This document shows positions 1,055 through 31,596 of a stretch of 52,202 nt of DNA, piece by piece. The notes beneath the pieces were generated by a model that saw nothing but the letters and a program-made list of their open reading frames with translations, ran no database searches and was not told where the DNA came from. Origin of the DNA: a phage; assembly GCA_028524385.1 (NCBI GenBank), contig GCA_028524385.1_3661.2; one strand, 5' to 3'. The position numbers and the translations under genes were made by a program. Within the stretch, counting starts at the first letter, position 1. Every line of letters begins with the position of its first letter.

Positions 1055-4000
1055 ATGCTTCCAATCCCTTTGCTAAAACTTGGTCGTCATTTCCTCGATA
1101 AGAGGGGTGGAATTAAGGAACTTGCTGTTCTGTCATACCCAATAGACAACAGTGACGGTACAAGCACTGCAGTATCCTATGTAAACAGCTTAGCTATACT
1201 TTTTGACGATGGTCAACTTAATATTACGGGCTATAACAAGTTCGGGGAGTGTCGCACTGGGGATCGTAACCCTATAAACTACCCGAGCGAAACAGCATGG
1301 AATGTTGATCATGTGTGGAGAGCAGACCGTGCGTTTGTGATCCGGACTTTTGATAATCAGTTTTTCTACATCGGCTGCACTGCAGGTCTTATCGGATCCA
1401 CTGCGGCGGGTGGTAATGATGTTTGTGTCAGAGAGTGGACACCTTTGCCGGAACAGATCGTAACAGGGTTGCATTTGGACACCCATCCTGAGAGACTTGT
1501 TGAAGTAATGGGTGGCATAAACAATACAGTGTGGGTAATTGCTGCACCAGAGGCTGATGGTATGCTTCACCTGTACGGCTCTGGCAATAATACTTACGGC
1601 TCTCTTCATGTTGACAAAAATCAACACGCTACTCCAGTTAAGATTGGTGAATCATCTGAAAGTCCAGAGACAGGTCCTTGGAAAAATCCAAGAATTAATT
1701 GTGAAGTTCATGACAACTCGGTTATTTTTGGTGGTCCTAACGGATTCTGGATTGCAGGTTACGATTTCTTAAGAAATAACAGCAAAAACACACCAGTTTA
1801 TCCAGCCGAGCATGTGACTCTTGACCAGTTTAAAGGCATCCCAGTGGGCGAGACATGGAAAGGGTTCATGTGTGGACCTAATGGTGCAATTATAGCCACA
1901 GAAAGGATGCACAAACCTGATGACCAACAACTTGTTAATGTGTTTTATGGTCAGGATGTTTGGGGTGACGACACGTGGAGAAGCCTTAACATCACCTATA
2001 CCCATGAAGTAATTATGGCTCGCGGGTACGGGACTAGTGGAATTTTCTTCAATAATGGTACAAAACAGTACCGTGGTTTCTCCAGAAACCTGTGTAACGA
2101 TATTGGTGCTCAATCTGCTAATAATAATCCTAGGGCCAATTTTATTCATTACAGAGCGCTGGCAACAGCTAAGTTTGTTGAACAGACAGAGCCAGTAAGC
2201 TGGACAGAAAGCGTTTATTTTCAAGGGATCCACAGGGAAGGTTTCTTAGGCACATTCTGTGTGGTAAATGGAAAGCTTTGGTGGTCAGGTATCCCAAGGG
2301 GCAGTTTTTCAGGCTCTAATAACCTGTTCGGCGGCAGACTTAACAGCCAAGGGTTCACAGAGATTCCTGAGAATTGGTATAAAAATGTTCCGGTAGATAG
2401 CTGGAGTATCGAAGACATCTTTGATGTCAATGGTGTAAGCAGTGTTAGCAATATATACATTGGCGACACTGTCAAAATGAAGTTGAAACCTCAACCGGAG
2501 GGTGCTACGTTCATTATTGACAAGATTGAGCTCGTGAACGCTGCAGGTACTGTTGTTACAGATGCAAACTATCAGTTCTCTACTAACTGGAACCATGGCG
2601 GTGCTAACGAGATTGTGGTTACCCAGCATAACCGTAACATCAACAGACGCGGTCTGTATTCTGTCAAGATCACCTATCATGATAAACATGGCGCTGGAAG
2701 AACCCACACCACACGAAACTTAAACTGGAACATTATAGTTCCTGCATATCCGTCAGACGGCAAATGGCACACTGTTGGCAGGAAGAAACAGTTCCATGTA
2801 AACGATACTGTATACTTTGGGCTTAACGGCTCTCAGCCTGCTCCAGAAAGCGATACAGCATATATGGTTAGGCTTCACAGGCAAGATGCCGGATCTACCA
2901 CGTATGATGTGACCCAGGAGATCTACGACCAGAGACGCAGTATCTATGACAATCTTGTGAAAACACAAGCCTTGTGGGAGTTCAACCCTAACGGCAAAGG
3001 CGGGAAGATGCTGCAGGTTAACGAGCAGAACGGAACATCGTTAACAGTGCACGAGCATGCTGATCCATGGCCTGATCCTGGTAAGCCTCACCCAGGTGCT
3101 CGCACACTGAAAGTTGTTAGCCACAACGCAGGGTATTTCGGGATACGTTGGGAAGCTACAGTAAAATATGTTGATGGAACAACAAACAATATAGGTATTA
3201 CTCTGGGTGGTACCAGTGAAGATAGTTCTCTGAAAATTGCCTACACCCCTAGAGGCATCTCTATTGACAATATGGATATAGTTCGTAACGGTTACGGTGA
3301 TGTAAACATCAAAGTTACCCTCGGTGAACATCTTGGTGGAGAAAGGATCATCATGTATGCCTTTGACCATGATCCTCGCACCAATGGAACCTATGCAAAT
3401 CAGGCGTGGAGTTACCTGATAAATGCACCTGAGCCAAATACTAAAGAGTTTTATTATGGTATGAAGCGCGATGTGTGCAAGAAAACAGGAACACATGACT
3501 GGATCGCTATCTGCGTTAAAGATGAGCGGACAGCTTGGGACGAGCCTGTTAACAGATGGTTCATAGGAATCCCAACCAGAAGTGATAAATATGTCACAGA
3601 ATATATTGTGTGCATGGGCGGCACCAACCTGAACCTGTGTTGGAACGAAGATGCAAACAAATATTCCGATTATGACTATATGAGAGATATCTCTTGTAAT
3701 CAGTGGTTTAACCAGACTACAGGTTACCCTCCGCGTCAGGCGAGAGTAAACCCTGCAATCTTCACAGATACGCAGGTTTTCTTGACAAAACAGGCCAACG
3801 AGGTTCAGACCTTCAAGAACAAATACGACCCTAACAAGTGGTTTTATAACTGTTATGGCGCATTTTTCTGGGGTCCGGGGGAACTACCTAACGGGGGATC
3901 TTGCTTCGAGGCTGCAACCTATGGCAGCGACTATATTATGGGGCAAGTCAAGAAATACAAAATGATCCCTGGTCCTGAAACCCTGGGTAATGCTGTTGAC

Positions 4001-6691
4001 CCGTATATAGTCTTCTCGTCTGTCCATGCAAATATGAACGGAGAGAAGTATCCGTTCGACGTTCCGGTAGCCAATAGATACAGACGTGTCGTGATGATCA
4101 TTAAGTGCGACCTGATAGGTAAGCAAGTTCCTGCTGAAAACGGAACATCAACACACCCGTTTGAAATTGCTCTGCACTACCAATTTGCAGATTCGCCTTT
4201 TGCAGGGGATAAGAGAATATCTGATACAGATGCACAGCGTTGTAAGAAGGTATTGTTAGGTGCTGGATGGTGGTGGTATGAGTTTGACTTGACAGACAAA
4301 CTCACAGACAACACAAAAACTCTTACAGGTATTCGTCTGGACCTTGGTGAAAACATGCACAAAAGTGTCTGCGATGGCACCTATGGTGATCCTACAGTAC
4401 ACTTGAAATATGTTTCTCTTGAGCATCCGGAGGAAACTGTTATTGGCCCCAAACTGAGACTGTTTGGCAGCTGGATTGCTAAAGACAGAGTAGGAATGGG
4501 TAAAAAGGTAAGAGGATTCCTGATGGATGCGGGGACAGAAGACATGCTGGTTAATGCAGTGTGGCCTACTCTAGAGGGAACCGACTACAACAATGCTGCA
4601 AGATCTGTCAACTGGTTTAACATCCACAGAGCCATGTGGACTACCAACTGCTATTTGTGGAGAGAGCTTAACGATAATGCCTTCGGCTTCAGCAATGGCA
4701 GAAGGATGGCTATCATTTGCTGGACAACACTGCAACGTTGCTATGACCACAACTATGAAATAGGTGGTAGAGCGTGGAAAGACACCAGGGATAGAATTGT
4801 GTACAACTTTGCAGACGACAACGGTGGTGGAGCGTATAACTTCGGCACAAGCAGACTTATCCACTTAAACGGATCCTCGGCCTACAAGAAAGAAGGTTAC
4901 TCTGGATCCATGATTGAGTGGGGTCTGGTAAAAGATGCTCGCGTATTGATGGGCCAACAACTTGCTGCTGCAATAGGTCCTAACGCAGTGCAATCTGTTA
5001 AACCAGCGTGGTTCGATATTCCATTGTGGTCATCCGGCACACCAGGGACTGCTGCAATCAATCCTACCACGGGAGATCTGGAAATCTCTTGGGAAGACTT
5101 GAAGCAGGTTGGGGGCTGGGATAAGACAGGGTATCAGGTGCAGTGGTGGAAATCTGACGGATCGTTAGCAGCTGATGAGTTTGTTAAGGACAATTTCTAC
5201 ACCATGTCTTCTGCAAAAGCACAGCAATTGTTTGGTCAGGCCACTCCGTCAACGATCACCATGTCTATGTGTTGTAAAGACAACAGGACTGGAGCTCTGG
5301 GACCAAGGGTTGCTAAAGTTTTCTCAGGTATCAAATGGAATCTACCTGTTCAAAGTGTTTCATGGAAGCAAATAGGTGATAACAGGCTGCTGGTTACTCC
5401 TGCTTGCCAGTTCAACGCAACTCTTAACGTTGTTCCGGTTGTTGCAGCAAACTCAGCCAAAGCTTCTGACTTCTCTGTGTCTAACACTGCCATGGCAGAT
5501 GTGAGAAAGATTGACACACTGAATGCAAGAATCACCTGTAAAAACACTTATGGCACCTTCCAGGTTATCAACAACTTCACAGATGCCGATTCTAAGGTGG
5601 TGAGAACCGCAAGCCAGACCTTGCGTTTAGGGACTTTGGCTTATGCAGCATTGATCACTGAGCAGTCATCTACCCTTCAGGGTGGTGGCGTAGGCAAGTC
5701 TATTACAACACCTGTTTGGAAGCCTAACGAGTGGGTTGTGTTTGATTTGACTGTTGACTTCTCCAGTGATAATAACTGGACGTGGGTAAGGGATTGCTTG
5801 TCTCAGTTAATGGGTGGTCCAAGCTCTATCAGGGATAGCCACGACTCTACCGATCCTGGCGTGTTCCAAGTGGGTAAAACTCACCCAGAGACCGGGGCTA
5901 CATTGCCTGACAGGAAGTATGCTTTGGTTTGCATCTCCCACGGCAAGGCCGATGTCACATTCTCAGGGACACATACTTATAACGGAACCTACAACTTCTC
6001 AAGAAAATACAGCCTCAAGGCTGGGAATATTGTAGATGAGGTTGGGGTGTTGTATAACCCTGGCAATGGCATAGGTATTGTTGGCGGTAAACTGCAGATG
6101 CAGGAACCCTCTATCACCCCTTCCAACGTAACAGGGATCAGAAAGACTTGGGAAAGTAGTAATACTGGCATAGCAACCGTTGATGCTAACACAGGACTGG
6201 TAACATTTAAAGCGCCCGGTAATGTCAACATAACGTTTGTAGTTACGGATGATGCAGGCCGCAAGACGTCTTCAACATCTTTCACTGTCAAACAGATGAC
6301 ACCACAGTGGAGAATGTGGATAGGCAGAGCAACAAACGGGGCATACCCAAATCCGGCAGGGACTTCAGGAATGAAGACTTTCTCTGCAAGCAGACCGATG
6401 GAGTATGGCAGCGGTCCTAAAGTAGGGCAAATGGTGTACTTCGGCGCATATATTCCTGAAATTATAGGGCTTCCGAGAAATCAGATCCAGTTGCTGTTCG
6501 GATCTGGAGTTGACGAGCTTGCTACTTTCGGGTATAGCGATAACATCGAGGCTGCAAGAAGTTCCGGATGGGTAGGGTTCAGACTGCAGTTGGCAGTAGA
6601 AGGCAGGGTCATGGGGTTTGGCTCCATAGGTGCCATGCTTCCTGGTGATCAGCAGTATGATCTTGAAGCTTATGCAACTTTCTCTCGTTAA
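1055..6691 (+). CDS. large tail fiber / receptor-binding protein (1878 aa) with C-terminal Ig-like domain
   Basis: Longest ORF; SD ggag 7 nt upstream; size and composition of phage fibers; Ig-like (BIG2-type) segment ...VTGIRKTWESSNTGIATVDANTGLVTFKAPGNVNITFVVTDDAG... near C-terminus. Confidence 0.65.
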   Translation: MLPIPLLKLGRHFLDKRGGIKELAVLSYPIDNSDGTSTAVSYVNSLAILFDDGQLNITGYNKFGECRTGDRNPINYPSETAWNVDHVWRADRAFVIRTFDNQFFYIGCTAGLIGSTAAGGNDVCVREWTPLPEQIVTGLHLDTHPERLVEVMGGINNTVWVIAAPEADGMLHLYGSGNNTYGSLHVDKNQHATPVKIGESSESPETGPWKNPRINCEVHDNSVIFGGPNGFWIAGYDFLRNNSKNTPVYPAEHVTLDQFKGIPVGETWKGFMCGPNGAIIATERMHKPDDQQLVNVFYGQDVWGDDTWRSLNITYTHEVIMARGYGTSGIFFNNGTKQYRGFSRNLCNDIGAQSANNNPRANFIHYRALATAKFVEQTEPVSWTESVYFQGIHREGFLGTFCVVNGKLWWSGIPRGSFSGSNNLFGGRLNSQGFTEIPENWYKNVPVDSWSIEDIFDVNGVSSVSNIYIGDTVKMKLKPQPEGATFIIDKIELVNAAGTVVTDANYQFSTNWNHGGANEIVVTQHNRNINRRGLYSVKITYHDKHGAGRTHTTRNLNWNIIVPAYPSDGKWHTVGRKKQFHVNDTVYFGLNGSQPAPESDTAYMVRLHRQDAGSTTYDVTQEIYDQRRSIYDNLVKTQALWEFNPNGKGGKMLQVNEQNGTSLTVHEHADPWPDPGKPHPGARTLKVVSHNAGYFGIRWEATVKYVDGTTNNIGITLGGTSEDSSLKIAYTPRGISIDNMDIVRNGYGDVNIKVTLGEHLGGERIIMYAFDHDPRTNGTYANQAWSYLINAPEPNTKEFYYGMKRDVCKKTGTHDWIAICVKDERTAWDEPVNRWFIGIPTRSDKYVTEYIVCMGGTNLNLCWNEDANKYSDYDYMRDISCNQWFNQTTGYPPRQARVNPAIFTDTQVFLTKQANEVQTFKNKYDPNKWFYNCYGAFFWGPGELPNGGSCFEAATYGSDYIMGQVKKYKMIPGPETLGNAVDPYIVFSSVHANMNGEKYPFDVPVANRYRRVVMIIKCDLIGKQVPAENGTSTHPFEIALHYQFADSPFAGDKRISDTDAQRCKKVLLGAGWWWYEFDLTDKLTDNTKTLTGIRLDLGENMHKSVCDGTYGDPTVHLKYVSLEHPEETVIGPKLRLFGSWIAKDRVGMGKKVRGFLMDAGTEDMLVNAVWPTLEGTDYNNAARSVNWFNIHRAMWTTNCYLWRELNDNAFGFSNGRRMAIICWTTLQRCYDHNYEIGGRAWKDTRDRIVYNFADDNGGGAYNFGTSRLIHLNGSSAYKKEGYSGSMIEWGLVKDARVLMGQQLAAAIGPNAVQSVKPAWFDIPLWSSGTPGTAAINPTTGDLEISWEDLKQVGGWDKTGYQVQWWKSDGSLAADEFVKDNFYTMSSAKAQQLFGQATPSTITMSMCCKDNRTGALGPRVAKVFSGIKWNLPVQSVSWKQIGDNRLLVTPACQFNATLNVVPVVAANSAKASDFSVSNTAMADVRKIDTLNARITCKNTYGTFQVINNFTDADSKVVRTASQTLRLGTLAYAALITEQSSTLQGGGVGKSITTPVWKPNEWVVFDLTVDFSSDNNWTWVRDCLSQLMGGPSSIRDSHDSTDPGVFQVGKTHPETGATLPDRKYALVCISHGKADVTFSGTHTYNGTYNFSRKYSLKAGNIVDEVGVLYNPGNGIGIVGGKLQMQEPSITPSNVTGIRKTWESSNTGIATVDANTGLVTFKAPGNVNITFVVTDDAGRKTSSTSFTVKQMTPQWRMWIGRATNGAYPNPAGTSGMKTFSASRPMEYGSGPKVGQMVYFGAYIPEIIGLPRNQIQLLFGSGVDELATFGYSDNIEAARSSGWVGFRLQLAVEGRVMGFGSIGAMLPGDQQYDLEAYATFSR

Positions 6692-21670: not shown

Positions 21671-23040
21671 TGGAAAAAGGGCAGTATGACGTAGGCACAG
21701 ATGCTGCCCTCATTGCAATCATGAGCGGTGAGAATGTCTTCGTTTCAGGACCTGCAGGTTGTGGGAAGACGTATCTCATCAACATGATCCAGTCAATGTA
21801 TGGAGACTCTTGCATAACGGTTGCCCCGACAGGGGTAGCCGCTTTAAACGTTAATGGAGCAACAGCACACCGAACATTCGATCTTGCAGCAGGTGTGAGC
21901 ATGGAGTCGGACTGGACTGCAATAAGGGCAAAAACAGCAAAGCCTTTGAAAAGCAAGGCATTTACCATCCTAATTATCGATGAAATCTCTATGATCCGTG
22001 CTGATAAGTTTATAGAGATGGATAGGAAACTCCGCTTCCTTCGAAAAAATGACAAACCTTTCGGAGGCATACAGGTCATATTGTTTGGCGATTTTTACCA
22101 AGCACCTCCTGTTGTCTCTTCTATGGAGAAGGAAGCCTACTTCAACTTCTACCATACGGACCTGTGTTGCTATACCGAATCTTGGAAAGAACTTGACCTC
22201 CACAACATAGCCCTAGTAGATCAGTTCCGACAGGAGTCTATTCGATTTGCCACAATGCTCAACTGTGTTCGTGAGGGTCGTCGCATAAAAGAGGTTGTAG
22301 CAGAACTTAATGCTCGTTGTTACAAAGGCGGTGTACCAACAGACGCTCTCACAATTTGCGCCACCAACAAACAAGCGGAGGAAGTGAACAGAAGGTTCTA
22401 TGATGCCATCAACGCCCCAGAAAAGGTATACACTGGTGAAATGAAGGGTAAGTTTCCCTCCACCCTGCCAGTTGAGCAGGAGATGAAGTTGAAAATTGGC
22501 ATGAAAGTTATGATAACCGCCAACGATGTTGACCCGACGCACAAAGTACCTTATTATGTTAACGGAACACGTGCCACAATTGTTAAATTTAAGAACAAGG
22601 CGGTGGTGGTAGAGCTTGAAGATGGAACACAGGTTGACATAGAACAGAGGTTGTGGGAGAATAACGAGTATAAGCCATCTCAAAGATACAACATTGCAGA
22701 AAGGAAGATGGAGAAGTTTATAGAGAGGGTAGTGATTGGATCATACAAGCAACTTCCTCTGAAATCTGGGTATGCCGTAACATCTCATAAAAGTCAAGGA
22801 CTTACGCTAGATTGTTACAACCTGGACCTTGGAAAGAACGGAGCTTTCTCTCCTGGGATGACGTATGTTGCTTTGAGTCGAGTTAAGACAATACAAGGGA
22901 TAAACTTGTTGCGTCCACTAAGAGAAGTTGATATTATTGTTGACCCGAGAGTCGTAGAGTTTTACAATACAACATTCCCTGACTTAGACAAAATTGTCAG
23001 GAAAGATTTTGAAACCAGAGCAGAAGAGGGGGACGTATGA
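21670..23040 (+). CDS. SF1B DNA helicase (Pif1/RecD/Dda-like)
   Basis: Walker A GPAGCGKT, motif II IIDEISM, motif III ILFGDFYQAPPV, motif V GYAVTSHKSQGLTLD, motif VI YVALSRV. Confidence 0.75.
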   Translation: MEKGQYDVGTDAALIAIMSGENVFVSGPAGCGKTYLINMIQSMYGDSCITVAPTGVAALNVNGATAHRTFDLAAGVSMESDWTAIRAKTAKPLKSKAFTILIIDEISMIRADKFIEMDRKLRFLRKNDKPFGGIQVILFGDFYQAPPVVSSMEKEAYFNFYHTDLCCYTESWKELDLHNIALVDQFRQESIRFATMLNCVREGRRIKEVVAELNARCYKGGVPTDALTICATNKQAEEVNRRFYDAINAPEKVYTGEMKGKFPSTLPVEQEMKLKIGMKVMITANDVDPTHKVPYYVNGTRATIVKFKNKAVVVELEDGTQVDIEQRLWENNEYKPSQRYNIAERKMEKFIERVVIGSYKQLPLKSGYAVTSHKSQGLTLDCYNLDLGKNGAFSPGMTYVALSRVKTIQGINLLRPLREVDIIVDPRVVEFYNTTFPDLDKIVRKDFETRAEEGDV

Positions 23041-23378
23041 GTTTGTGGAGAAATATAGTTAACTACGTGTGTGGCAATCCAACTCCTGAAGAGAAGGATG
23101 TTGTGATTCACGATTTTACTAAAAGATCTCGTGAAAAAGACCTACTGCTAACAAAGGTGACTGATAAAGATCCTGCAGTAGGGGACTGGGCAGGTTTTGC
23201 GTTTACATCGGACAAATACACCTTTAACAAAGGTGACTATCTTGTTGTAGATTTTAACGAAGACATTGATGGTGCTGAACCTTACTATCAGACCCTTATT
23301 ATTGCAGGGTGCGTTGATCTCTCTGCAGGCATGCACAGTTTGATTCTTTTTGAGCTTGACTCTGAAGACCTTCAGTAG
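23037..23378 (+). CDS. hypothetical protein
   Basis: 113-aa ORF, start overlaps helicase stop. Confidence 0.4.
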   Translation: MSLWRNIVNYVCGNPTPEEKDVVIHDFTKRSREKDLLLTKVTDKDPAVGDWAGFAFTSDKYTFNKGDYLVVDFNEDIDGAEPYYQTLIIAGCVDLSAGMHSLILFELDSEDLQ

Positions 23379-23438
23379 TAAGATGTTAGTCTAAAGGGGA
23401 GGCACTCCTCCCCACAAAAACTAAGGAAGCACTAAACG

Positions 23439-23741
23439 ATGAAACGTTATAAACCGTACACTTTTGAAATCGATTTCGAACTTGACGATATGTTTACTGT
23501 GGAAGCTCAAGCAGTTGTCCAGTTGCCAGACTCGGAGTGCCGTGACTCTGATGTTGACTATTACGGATTTAGACAAATTACCGATGTGCGTGTTTACCAC
23601 AACGGTGAAGAGGTGGACTTCCACCAACTGCCAAACGATATGCGCCACTCAATTTACAAACGTGCAGCCCGTGAACTAGAGTCCTATCTGGATGCAGCGA
23701 CGACAGCAGCTGCATTTGCTGAAGAAGTTGGAGGTTTCTGA
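23439..23741 (+). CDS. hypothetical protein
   Basis: 100-aa ORF preceded by GC hairpin, CA-rich leader and SD aaggaag. Confidence 0.45.
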   Translation: MKRYKPYTFEIDFELDDMFTVEAQAVVQLPDSECRDSDVDYYGFRQITDVRVYHNGEEVDFHQLPNDMRHSIYKRAARELESYLDAATTAAAFAEEVGGF

Positions 23742-27573: not shown

Positions 27574-30500
27574 ATGAGCATGTGGTCTTTCGATTTTGAG
27601 TCATCCGGTTTGCTGGAAGACCCAGATCTTTATTATCACTGCGGCCTGTTTAAAGAGCTGAATAAGAACCGTTTTATGCTGTTCCTTCCTCTAAATGACC
27701 GCACACACTACTCTGAAGAGGATATAGAGAAGGCTAAGAACTTTATTCTGGCAAAGAAAACTCTTTATAAAGATTTTGAAGTTCGCATAGCAGATTTTTC
27801 AGAGTTGGAAGGTTGGCTTACAGGAAATTCTGACTGGTCACCCACAGCTTTGAACTGCCACAACTGCTACAGCTACGACTTTATGCTGATGGAGAGATTG
27901 TCCGGTATTCATTTTGATATGTTCCGTGACCCTAAGTGTATGGGGACTATCAACGACCACCAGGTTAATCTGTTTGATACGTTGGCGATGAGCCGAATCT
28001 TGTGGCCTGATCGCCCTTTACCAAAAGGTTGTCCGGACTCTGTATTCAACCCGGTTACTAAGAAAATGCAGCCTGTTGGTCCTCACGGCCTTATGGCATG
28101 GGGCTACGCCCTTGGTAACCAGAAAGTTCAAATTGATGACTGGCGCGATCTTCCGTTGTGGAAGTATGTGGATCGTGTATTCGAGGACGTTATCATCCAG
28201 GAGCTGCTCTGGAAAGAGCTGGTAGCGGAATCAAAAGGTGTATTCTACGGCAAATCTGACATGCAGAACTTTATGTACGATCCAGCCAAAGAGAAGCCGA
28301 AAGGGTTCAAGAAGATCACCTGGAAGAACGCACTACGTCGAGGCATGCTGCAGCACTTCCTGATGGAGCTGCAGGCCCGTCAGGGTGTATACTTCGACAT
28401 AGATGGAGCTATTGCTTTACGTGACCGTTGCGATGCGTGGATGAAAGAAATCGCTGATCGTGTTGAACCACAACTACCTTTAAAAGAGCTGTCAATGTCT
28501 CAGCGGCCCAAGTTCCCTGAAAAGCCGTTTAACCAAGACGGGACAATCTCTAATAATGGTTGGAAATGGTTAAAAGATAAGCTTGGCTATCCTGTAGACA
28601 TGAGCGCTTTAGATTTCAAAGCCCCGCCTAAGCGAGCATTTACCTCTACAGGAGATGTCAGCAAGATGGGGATAAAATGGTGTGAAGAGATGGGCTGCAA
28701 AGACCCCGATAAGATGGCTGATTTCTTGAGAGGCTATATTAAGGGCACTTCCACACCTCACCCTTTGCCTAAAGAGCTGATGGATCAGGCAATAAGTGAT
28801 CTACAGCAGAAGCGAATGCCGGACTGCAAGATACCTATGAAAATCAGCAATCAGGACGACATTAAGCGGTATCTGATCAGTGCTGGCTGGCTACCGACAA
28901 TGTGGAGAACTAAGGATGTAACTAAAGATAGCAAGAAGAAAGCTCTACCTGATGCGGATGTTGATGCACGAGTATATGCATATATGGACGAGCTTTTAGA
29001 GTCAGAGTATTGTGACCTGATTATCAACTTCTGGAACAAAACTGATGCCAAGTTCCAGACAACTGTGCACAAGTTCCGAAGCTTTCCTAACTCTGAAAGG
29101 ATTAAAAAGGAAGTATTCGGGAAAATACGTAGAAAAGCCAGAGCACTTATTACTTCTCCGCAACTGAAAGATACGTTTGGACACCTGTGTCCGAATCTTG
29201 AAAAATTGAACGGAGAGATGGCTAAAGATATCGTCTTGTGGTTATCATTGCGAAACCGCAGATCAGTCCTTGATCCAATCAAGGAGGATAAGGTTGATAC
29301 TGGTCTTCTTAATCACCCACGTTTGAAGATTGACCATAAGCTTCCTGCTAAAAGCTCTGGATTAACAAACACTTCCAGACAGAAACACAGTATTTGTGCA
29401 AACATGCCTAAACCATCCCCTAAAGTGGTTATGGGTAAAGAGATGCGCAGTCTGTGGGGTGTTCCTCCTGGATACTTTCAGATCGGTATTGACGGGTCCA
29501 ACTTAGAGCAGCTTATCGGGGCTTGGGGTGCCTTTGAGTTCGACAACGGCCTGTATTACGATGTTGTAAGTAACGGCGATGCACATTGTTATTCAGGAGA
29601 TACACAAATTCTCACGGAGAAAGGGTGGGTGAGGTTTGAAGATCTTGATCCGGGAACACAAGTGTTCCAGTACGATCACAACACCTCGTCAATGAACCTT
29701 GTTACTCCATTAAATTACGTTAAGCGTAGTTATTATGGAGATATGTATCATTTCCACAACAGTAGTGTGGATTTTATGGTTACAGATCAACACAGGATGC
29801 TGACTGTGGATCACAGAAGCAATAAATTGTTTGAAGATTTGGCAAAAGACCTGAAAGCAGGTAAAGGGTCTAATTCAGGAAGAAGGTTTATCCATGCGGC
29901 AGAGTTTTATGGGAATACAGCCTTATCTCCTGCCCAGGTTAATTTGCTTATTGCTATTCACGATGATGGGCACTTGCATACAAATAAGGACGGCAGCATC
30001 GTGTGCAGGATTCAGGTCGGAAAGGGAAGAAAAGTTGCAACGCTTTTAGATACTTTTTCTGCTCTAAGCCTTAGTTATGTAGAGCAGAGCGGGAAAACCA
30101 CAAAAGGAGGCTTACTGGCGAGAAGGTTCCAATTCCACGTTCCGTCTTGGGTATTTGAGTTTTTGGACAGCAATAAGGATTTCACCTACAACCTGATGAA
30201 CCTTGATAAAGAATCTAAAAACCTGTTTATAGCTTCTTTATCTAACTGGGACGGGTGGGTATCTTCAGAAGGTGGAAAGGTTGCTTACTACTCCCAGGCC
30301 GAGTGTAGGAAGAAATCTGTAGAGGTGGTGTCTGCGCTGGCTACTCAGTGTGGTTTACGGAATAATACGGTGGCGATTCACAAAAAAGGTCGTGCCGTGC
30401 AGCACAGAATCACAATTGGTAGCAAACAGAGAGCAGGGTTGCTGACACTATCTAAAGAGTCTGTCGAGGTGAGCGGTTCTTTGGTTTATTGCGTTACCGT

Positions 30501-30966
30501 CCCTTCTGGAGCAATCATTGTGAGAAGGAATGGTAAAGTGGCAGTGTGCGGTAACTGTAATAACGCCAAAGCTTACTCTTCTGTAGCAGGCAAGGAGATT
30601 TCCCGTAACGATGGTAAGCCTATCACGTATGGGGTTATGTACGGGGCACAAAAAGATAAAGTTGCAGATATGCTGGACATCTCTCCAGAGTTGGGACAAA
30701 GGGTAATCGATGCACTCTGGGATGCCAACCCTGGTCTCAAGGGGCGCAAAGAGGATCTGGAGAAATTCTGGGAAGCAACTGGTAAGAAGTTTATCTACTC
30801 TTTTGATGGTCATGCTATCTGGACCAGATCTAAACACTCTTTACTTAATGCATACCAACAGAATGGTGGTGCATCGCTGTGTGACTTAGTTGGGATACTT
30901 ATGCACCACCAAATGGTGAAGCGTGGGTGGTACGATGAAGGTGTTCGTCGTATTATTTATTACCAT
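27574..30966 (+). CDS. family A DNA polymerase (T7 gp5-like), exon 1, containing an intein
   Basis: Exo I FDFE, HCG and HGLMAWGYALG as in T7 gp5 exonuclease domain; motif A IDGSNLEQL...NGDAH; motif B-like GKPITYGVMYG after intein; track ORF continues 2 codons into the intron to stop at 30972. Confidence 0.75.
29587..30555 (+). mobile_element. intein (323 aa) with LAGLIDADG-type homing endonuclease domain
   Basis: Inserted after extein ...SNGDAH; starts CYSGDTQILTEKGWVRFEDL; two LAGLIDADG-like motifs (LLIAIHDDGH, LFIASLSNWDGW); ends VYCVTV...VAVCGN followed by +1 Cys; flanks align to T7 gp5 NGDIH|TKNQ...RDNAKTFIYGFLYG. Confidence 0.65.
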
Positions 30967-31242
30967 AAATAACATTGTGGCTTCATAGAGTAATCTATGT
31001 CGAATAACCTCTTTAACTGCGGGAAGCCTAAACCTTATGGCAAGGTAATCCGCAACGAAGCGCTCAAAAGAGCGAACGCTCAGAGGCCATTCCGAAAGGA
31101 AGTAGACCAGCAAGTGCGGTCGAAATGGGAGGATTCCTGTGGTTGCTTATCATAGGAATATGAGATGGTCCGATCCTACGTGAAAACGTATGGCTATGCA
31201 CGTAATGGTGCGGGGTAGCTTAACGACCTACCTGAACTATTG
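30967..31242 (+). ncRNA. group I self-splicing intron (ORF-less) in DNA polymerase gene
   Basis: 276 nt between exon U30966 and terminal intron G31242; P/Q/R/S core elements aactgcgggaag, aatccgcaacg, cagaggcca, gagatggtcc; IGS gugg can pair with exon end ccau. Confidence 0.65.
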
Positions 31243-31596
31243 GATGAGTACCAACTTCAGGTCCCTGACACGCCTAAGTATAAGACTGTGTACACCTTCG
31301 ACACAATTGAAGAATTGGAAGCATTTAAGGCAGAGCAGGAGGCCAAACTTCATGTGTTTGACGGTCATAAGTACAAAAAGGCACGCAAGGATGAAAACGG
31401 AAACGAAGTGGTTGACAGAGACGGAAACACGGTGTACGATCCTATCCTGAACGATGACGGAAAGCTTGAACTTATCTGGAGCCCTGTGGGTGAAATGGTG
31501 GTGCATTGCTTCTGGCAAGCTTCTAAAATGATGGGCGTTCCATTCCAGATCACAGGTGAATACTTGTGTGGTCGGAACTGGGGTGATTGTCACTAA
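31243..31596 (+). CDS. family A DNA polymerase, exon 2 (motif C to C-terminus)
   Basis: Begins DEYQLQV, completing YYH|DEYQLQV (Pol A motif C HDE); ends ...GRNWGDCH like T7 gp5 ...GPNWAICH; no SD or promoter of its own. Confidence 0.65.
   Translation, partial: DEYQLQVPDTPKYKTVYTFDTIEELEAFKAEQEAKLHVFDGHKYKKARKDENGNEVVDRDGNTVYDPILNDDGKLELIWSPVGEMVVHCFWQASKMMGVPFQITGEYLCGRNWGDCH

Follow-up and report, generated by a model that had tools for sequence, protein, structure and literature searches.

The interrupted DNA polymerase gene

The DNA studied here, contig GCA_028524385.1_3661.2 (52,202 nt; hereafter the window), belongs by its sequence matches to a Vequintavirus, an rV5-like myovirus of Escherichia coli. 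On its + strand it carries a family A DNA polymerase gene in two pieces. An open reading frame (ORF) of 1132 aa, 27574..30972, ends in ...RRIIYYHK at a stop codon (30970-30972), and the next ORF on the same strand, 31240..31596, starts with TTG, begins MDEYQLQV and ends in ...NWGDCH. Joining U30966 to G31243 takes out 276 nt and gives an in-frame product of 1248 aa with the junction YYH/DEYQLQV, where the slash marks the joint here and below. Our comparison of the sequence with its relatives indicates, with high confidence, that the 276 nt in between (30967..31242, + strand) are a group I intron of subgroup IA2 that has no endonuclease ORF, interrupts the gene at motif C and would be spliced out of the polymerase transcript.

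The first exon covers 27574..30966 (+ strand; 1131 codons ending in ...RRIIYYH, including those of a 323-aa intein), and the second covers 31243..31596 (+ strand; 117 codons plus the stop, DEYQLQV...NWGDCH). The stop codon that closes the first ORF, UAA at 30970..30972 on the + strand, is the second codon of the intron and is in frame with exon 1. Outside the intein the exon 1 protein is 98.8% identical to the rV5 polymerase, and it also has a weak match to the Pfam family DNA_pol_A. In phages that do not have the intron, exon 2 runs on directly from exon 1, with 100% amino-acid identity. A tblastn search with the predicted spliced C-terminus showed that in many close relatives this region is uninterrupted, with identities of up to 100%.

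The joined product has the conserved motif that each piece alone does not have. We aligned the C-terminal half of the polymerase, with the intron and the intein removed, to T7 gp5, and found YYHDEYQL opposite WVHDEIQV (residues 651-658), with HDE at H653-D654-E655. Of the T7 residues, D654-E655 are part of motif C of the family A polymerases, and D654 binds a catalytic metal ion; the equivalent in Pol I is H881-D882-E883. The spliced polymerase also ends much like T7 gp5 (...NWGDCH versus ...NWAICH). This likeness was checked by translating T7 gene 5. A phmmer query of the spliced protein's 142 C-terminal aa, made up of exon 2 and the last 25 residues of exon 1, had matched no polymerase among the PDB sequences because of an insertion of about 60 aa in exon 2. 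An earlier reading made from the sequence only (the sequence-only reading) had described the stop after YYH(K), the restored HDE and the T7-like end, and our analysis bears it out on each. It had also noted that the second ORF has no Shine-Dalgarno sequence, and indeed no purine-rich one was found upstream of the TTG at 31240. Between the exons we found no promoter-like or terminator-like site on the + strand. The ligated mRNA is predicted to read ...TATTACCAT/GATGAGTAC... at the junction, and the tryptic peptide across YYH/DEY to be IIYYHDEYQLQVPDTPK.

Boundaries and structure of the intron

The Rfam model of group I introns (Intron_gpI, RF00028) matches the window in full (model positions 1-253) at 30957..31192 of the + strand, with 64.7 bits and an E-value of 3.3e-14, above the gathering score of 50 bits. 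The Rfam alignment ends at 31192, in P9, and the last 50 nt, which hold P9.1, P9.2 and the 3' tail, were assigned using the intron-less allele and the covariation. The whole window was scanned with Rfam at E<=0.1, and no other RNA family and no second intron were found; there are no tRNAs in the window either.

The exact ends of the intron come from an intron-less allele. Phage rV5_ev147 reads ...TATTACCAT/GATGAGTACC... at this place, which equals the window minus exactly 30967..31242; the empty insertion site has the sequence ...TATTACCATGATGAGTACC.... The position of this indel cannot be shifted because the flanking bases differ at each boundary, and the splice junctions U30966/A30967 and G31242/G31243 coincide with it. 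The last base of the indel is the terminal guanosine (omega-G, 31242, + strand) that the sequence-only reading had pointed out; it is invariant in 11 introns. Both the covariance-model search and the alignment to intron-less homologues had been proposed in that reading, and both came out in its favor.

The proposed secondary structure has 15 helices from P1 to P9.2, including the P3/P7 pseudoknot, and all 79 of its 79 pairs are canonical in the window. All helices lie on the + strand. P1, taken from the Rfam alignment and the model, pairs the exon CCAU plus the first intron bases AA (30963-68) with the guide UUGUGG (30975-80), and its 6 pairs are all invariant in the 11 introns. Within it GUGG (30977-80) lies opposite the exon CCAU (30963-66), as the sequence-only reading had proposed, with a U30966·G30977 wobble at the 5' splice site. 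A second guide, CAUU (30973-76), can pair with the start of exon 2, GAUG (31243-46), and is a candidate P10 read from the sequence, with little variation among the introns. P2 is a hairpin (30984-88 with 30995-99) with compensatory changes in 5 of 5 pairs, and P3 (31008-13 with 31127-32) is 100% paired with two double-change pairs (C-G to U-A and U-A to C-G).

The core follows in the expected order. P4 (31018-23 with 31049-54) and P5 (31026-29 with 31043-46) are both given by the Rfam alignment and supported by covariation, and P5a (31033-34 with 31039-40) by the Rfam alignment. P6 (31056-57 with 31077-78) and P6a (31061-65 with 31070-74) show covariation, P6a being the position of the HNH endonuclease ORF in relatives. 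P7 (31085-89 with 31166-70), which has the guanosine-binding site and forms the pseudoknot with P3, has 5 pairs that are 100% paired, and the window has a compensatory C-G where the relatives have U-A. The elements P and Q in the sequence-only reading are the two strands of P4, and its R and S are those of P7. P8 is an 11-bp hairpin (31133-43 with 31149-59) with 5 compensatory pairs. P9 (31175-81 with 31186-93, with a GAAA loop), P9.1 (31198-201 with 31208-11) and P9.2 (31213-18 with 31228-33) have four, one and three double-change pairs, respectively, and are 98.7-100% paired.

Introns of subgroup IA2 are recognized by two extra helices, P7.1 and P7.2, which lie between P7 and the 3' strand of P3 and are joined by G-U-A (PMC3428280). 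The window has all three, i.e. P7.1 at 31090-101 (31090-93 with 31098-101 in the model, with a GAAA loop), the GUA linker at 31102-04 and P7.2 at 31105-21 (31105-11 with 31116-21; 100% paired, with two double changes). The linker, as GUA(G), is invariant in 11 of 11 sequences.

The covariation was measured on an alignment of 11 sequences. The same-site introns used for it come from the Vequintavirus phages JEP1, JLBYU08 and isim, Avunavirus 18-1-2, Escherichia phage A5-4, Certrevirus CB7, Vibrio phage K470 and 3 IMG/VR contigs, and all of them interrupt the gene at ..YH/DE... We calculated that 95.3% of the cells are standard pairs in this alignment, against 37-40% in controls with the 3' partners slid by 1-3 columns, and that both sides have changed in 38 of the 79 pairs, against 3-8 in the slid controls. 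The observed covariation was reached by none of 500 shuffles. Compensatory changes are found in every helix except the exon-constrained P1, including P3 and the pseudoknotted P7. RNAalifold independently recovered 11 of the 15 helices (P1-P6, P7.2, P8, P9, P9.1 and P9.2). It also paired the 3' strand of P7 with the 3' splice site (columns 328-332 with 404-408), which we consider an artefact because the program cannot draw a pseudoknot; these columns are almost invariant, while the P7 pairing has a compensatory change. The minimum free energy fold of the single sequence has a z-score of only -2.7 and was not counted as evidence. Since the structure covaries, the RNA fold is under selection, unlike a mere spacer between two genes.

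Relation to known introns and to existing annotation

The intron itself is already known, and the sequence-only reading is a correct rediscovery of it. The identical 276 nt, at the same position, are annotated in two records. That of phage LL12 (MH491969) has a joined coding sequence (CDS) with the note 'intron-interrupted gene; intron splice site predicted based on homology to AKU44295', and its 2019 announcement in Microbiol Resour Announc describes the DNA polymerase gene as 'disrupted by predicted intron sequences' (PMC6658697). The record of the BASEL phage RudolfGeigy (MZ501102) has a two-piece CDS across the same 276 nt. Neither record gives an RNA class, a structure or an experimental test, and in both phages the polymerase has no intein, so that exon 1 spans 2430 nt compared with 3393 nt in the window.

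Other records treat the locus differently. The RefSeq entry of the type phage rV5 splits the 'DNA polymerase' into two CDSs, gp223 and gp220, and places two hypothetical CDSs in the gap. These two, gp222 and gp221 (4531-4689 and 4724-4984 of locus L001), correspond to 30997-31155 and 31190-31450 of the window; the former lies inside the intron and the latter runs out of frame across the intron and exon 2. They have no Pfam match and are probably spurious. In the 2013 paper on rV5 the enzyme appears as a '775 amino acid DNA polymerase', and the only introns mentioned are those of the terminase gene (PMC3606486). The 775-aa protein is exon 1 without the catalytic Asp-Glu.

A close system studied by experiment is that of Pectobacterium phage CB7: for each of its two polymerase introns, reverse transcription PCR (RT-PCR) gave a product made shorter by splicing, which Sanger sequencing confirmed (PMC7344957). 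CB7 is also a member of the Vequintavirinae, and its second polymerase intron has the same codon boundary (RRIIYYH/DEYQLEV) and a homologous core, being one of the 11 sequences aligned. It differs from the window's intron in its length of 687 nt and in the HNH ORF CB7_50, which runs from P5/P4 through P6, and because of this ORF it scores only 46.6 bits, under the Rfam gathering cut-off. The first CB7 intron (22865-23535 of locus L016, - strand) splits motif B at ...GVTYG/(V)MYGAQ. An extra intron was also observed in the IMG/VR contig L012 (1104-1479, + strand; 79 bits with Rfam), where it follows ...LPAESSG upstream of motif A, besides the intron at the HDE site. A scan of IMG/VR with a pattern of the 5' junction plus P1 gave only 4 loci.

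The insertion site is shared with introns of T7-like phages. As far as the account in PMC3428280 of Bonocora and Shub (2004) goes, phages phiI and W31 have self-splicing IA2 introns at site 881 of Pol I with an HNH ORF in P6a. By the same account the likeness extends to the family A polymerase gene, to the site at the His of HDE and to P7.1/P7.2 with GUA, and the window's H/DE junction aligns to H653/D654 of T7. The HNH ORF in P6a described there is also the layout of the 842-nt variant found in isim. The differences are that phiI and W31, on that account, carry an HNH gene (I-TslI) in the intron, whereas the window's intron has none, and that they are podoviruses rather than rV5-like myoviruses. 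The polymerase introns of SPO1, SP82, Bastille and Pf-WMP3 and the td, nrdB and sunY introns of T4 are at a different site (Pol I 674) or in different genes (PMC3428280). Pf-WMP3 has an early in-frame stop as well, the first three nucleotides of its intron being UAA (PMC3428280). Introns of the SPO1 type, unlike that in the window, carry genes for the nicking HNH enzymes I-HmuI and I-HmuII.

Proposed splicing and alternative explanations

In the proposed pathway, the polymerase gene would be transcribed as one RNA and the intron would fold into the P1 to P9.2 ribozyme. An external guanosine bound at P7 would attack the phosphodiester bond after U30966, which the internal guide would hold in the U·G wobble of P1. 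In the second step the 3'-OH of exon 1 would attack the bond that follows the terminal G31242, P10 holding exon 2 in line, and ligation of CAU to GAU would yield His-Asp-Glu. In RNA left unspliced, translation would stop at the UAA that is the intron's second codon, and the shortened protein, ending in ...YYHK, would not have the catalytic Asp/Glu; the catalytic carboxylates of motif C would be encoded by the spliced mRNA only. Removal of the 323-aa intein would also be needed, giving an enzyme of 925 aa.

Catalysis is suggested by the membership in the group I family, by the RT-PCR of the CB7 homologue and by the viability of the phages that carry the intron. The identical intron is carried by at least 19 phages that form plaques and were isolated independently, among them rV5, LL12 and BASEL isolates. 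Because these carriers presumably rely on this polymerase, the intron is expected to splice efficiently.

Some of our data weigh against this interpretation. The Rfam score is the lowest among the same-site introns (72-91 bits in the relatives), indicating a somewhat atypical core, and one pair of P7 is G·U in the window versus A-U in the relatives. P1 and P10 are invariant, so that the covariation does not bear on them. For the phiI and W31 introns a homology is suggested by their published insertion site, and splicing of the exact 276-nt variant of this phage is something that we infer rather than an observation on RNA or protein.

The low score could also indicate a decayed intron, one whose ribozyme activity has been lost so that a host or phage factor is needed, or that leaves the polymerase non-functional in this genome. 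P5 and P7.1 are shorter than in the 328-nt form of the intron, and the endonuclease ORF is lost or was never present, both of which would be consistent with decay. However, all 79 pairs of the core and the periphery are canonical, and the GUA linker, the J-region consensus, the U·G pair and omega-G are all intact; moreover the same sequence is carried by the plaque-forming phages above, which probably depend on the polymerase. We therefore consider decay very unlikely.

The least probable explanation is a split polymerase, in which the insertion stays in the RNA and the active enzyme is put together from two separate translation products, that of exon 1 (ending in YYHK) and that of the ORF from TTG 31240: a stop does follow exon 1 in frame, a TTG does precede DEYQL, rV5 RefSeq and several other records list two separate CDSs, the HNH-associated insertion in the nicotinamide phosphoribosyl transferase gene of CB7 did not splice (PMC7344957), and the Aeh1 NrdA gene split by mobE is a precedent, as the latter paper cites it, but the break would part His from Asp-Glu within the catalytic motif C, the second piece has neither a Shine-Dalgarno sequence nor a promoter, a full group I fold kept through 38 compensatory pair changes would be unexplained if the insertion were never spliced, and CB7 removes its homologous insertion at this site by splicing. 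Furthermore, about half of the sampled Vequintavirus genomes, close relatives of this phage, encode one continuous polymerase, so a separate downstream protein is not the normal arrangement, which the sequence-only reading had named as an outcome that would speak against it. Overall, a group I intron that is removed by splicing is the explanation we favor.

Endonucleases and polymorphism of the insertion site

The 276-nt intron does not contain an intron-encoded endonuclease gene such as a homing intron would have. Inside or overlapping it, no ORF of the + strand is longer than 52 aa, and the longest of the - strand have 75 and 45 aa. Three ORFs were compared with Pfam (the sense one of 52 aa, the antisense one of 75 aa and one of 86 aa that overlaps exon 2 out of frame), and none gave a significant match, in agreement with the sequence-only reading, which had seen no homing endonuclease ORF. 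We also searched the window by tblastn with 8 HNH proteins from relatives and found nothing below an E-value of 0.1; by this search there is no candidate trans-acting endonuclease in the 52 kb. The window has a very long ORF of 1878 aa near its start (1055-6691, + strand). In isim, A5-4 and the loci L012 and L014 an HNH ORF replaces P6a. The HNH family is very broad, as tblastn with the isim protein gave 896 records, in which the T7-like intron carriers were not singled out.

The insertion site is polymorphic in the genus. We took 60 evenly spaced records of the 117 Vequintavirus records matching the locus, and found 31 with an empty site, 12 with the 276-nt intron, 2 with an ORF-less intron of about 328 nt and 15 with an 842-nt intron containing an HNH gene. 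Such a polymorphism with four states, the 842-nt form having HNH in P6a, is typical of the site of a homing intron. The 276-nt form and the 328/842-nt forms are mosaics, since the first ~18 nt and the last ~50 nt are common to them and the core differs.

The 276-nt intron is frozen in sequence compared with its exons. Across seven genomes with this form (the window, L001, L002, L003, L010, L020 and L021) we observed no variable site in the intron versus 69 in the adjoining 734 nt of exon, 52 of them at third codon positions. The probability of no variable intron site at the exon rate is ~1.5e-12. Variable positions in exon 2 occur as early as +13 and +18, so the block of identity ends within ~13-18 nt on that side, and the intein of the same gene is not frozen (24-27 of 969 nt differ). 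Purifying selection on a ribozyme cannot plausibly freeze every loop nucleotide. Most simply, the pattern suggests that an element with no endonuclease of its own has spread horizontally in recent times, and that the co-conversion was very short.

We tentatively propose, while considering it rather unlikely, that the ORF-less 276-nt intron is still spreading with the help of an endonuclease encoded elsewhere (collaborative homing). Phage 241Ecol014PP, which has the 276-nt intron, encodes a free-standing NUMOD4/HNH/HTH protein (4618-5265 of locus L010) whose gene starts 21 nt after the polymerase stop. The gene lies in an extra segment of ~680 nt that would be placed just behind 31596 of the window, and its product shares 35% identity with the HNH protein encoded in the isim intron (E-value 1e-16). 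No similarity was found between this protein and either T7 gp5.3 or the HNH protein encoded downstream of the Vibrio K470 polymerase. Phage phita32, also with the 276-nt intron, has the same extra ~680 nt beside its polymerase gene, as seen in a search match only. In Vibrio phage K470 and in CB7 the polymerase gene is likewise followed directly by one for an HNH protein, whereas the window has none. Bonocora and Shub reportedly proposed in 2009 that an intronic and a free-standing endonuclease form a pair in phiI and T3, and the arrangement in 241Ecol014PP resembles this.

Relatives of the intron were also observed at other places. The record KM190144.1 (Escherichia phage Av-05) has at 120740-120872, annotated as 'terminase large subunit', a segment 73% identical to nt 8-148 of the intron. 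Several genomes have 2-3 places that match the intron, including a second place in the Vibrio phages K470 and K412, and related introns therefore occupy other genes of these phages. In Vibrio phage vB_VibM_10AMN (1501-1725 of locus L018) a 66%-identical relative lies between two 'hypothetical protein' CDSs; it does not have the TACCAT/AAA junction pattern and is under the Rfam gathering score. In addition, 16 GenBank records of 'Campylobacter phage' (within MG065635-MG065682), with Campylobacter jejuni given as the host, are 94-98% identical to E. coli Vequintaviruses at the locus and together carry all the site variants. The host label of these records looks doubtful.

An intein in the same gene

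Exon 1 holds the intein of 323 aa at 29587-30555 (+ strand), which the sequence-only reading does not mention; it was identified by profile matches and by comparison with intein-less alleles. The matches are weak but specific (Hint_2, E-value 7.5e-5; the AceL NrdHF intein, E-value 1.7e-4). The intein starts with Cys1 and ends in ...VAVCGN before a Cys at +1, and it has the LAGLIDADG-like blocks LLIAIHDDGH and LFIASLSNWDGW. Its penultimate residue is Gly and not the usual His. It is present in YP-6, 241Ecol014PP and JEP1, and absent from rV5, LL12 and rV5_ev147. The +1 Cys stands in place of a Gln, and the neighboring extein reads CNNAKAYSS compared with QNNAEAYTK in the intein-less alleles; altered extein codons beside the intein are as expected from co-conversion. 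After removal of the intein the junction is predicted to be ...NGDAH-CNNAK.... With the intron and the intein in one gene, the polymerase would thus need both RNA splicing and protein splicing.

Implications

To the annotation in LL12 and RudolfGeigy our analysis adds the subgroup assignment, the full structure with its covariation, and the exact equivalence of the insertion site to that in phiI, W31 and CB7. It also corrects an annotation: YP-6, JEP1 and the O157 typing phages are among the many records that repeat the rV5 error, which is of a kind that misleads pangenome and phylogeny studies of phages used for therapy and typing. The locus is a textbook case of a group I intron placed in the most conserved and catalytically essential codons of a phage replication gene. 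If the collaborative homing proposed above is true, one genus keeps every stage of the Bonocora-Shub scheme by which a mobile intron is built up, i.e. the empty site, the bare intron, the intron with an adjacent free-standing endonuclease and the intron with the endonuclease inside P6a. The four-state site and the frozen ORF-less intron make these phages a convenient natural system for studying how introns without an endonuclease persist and move.

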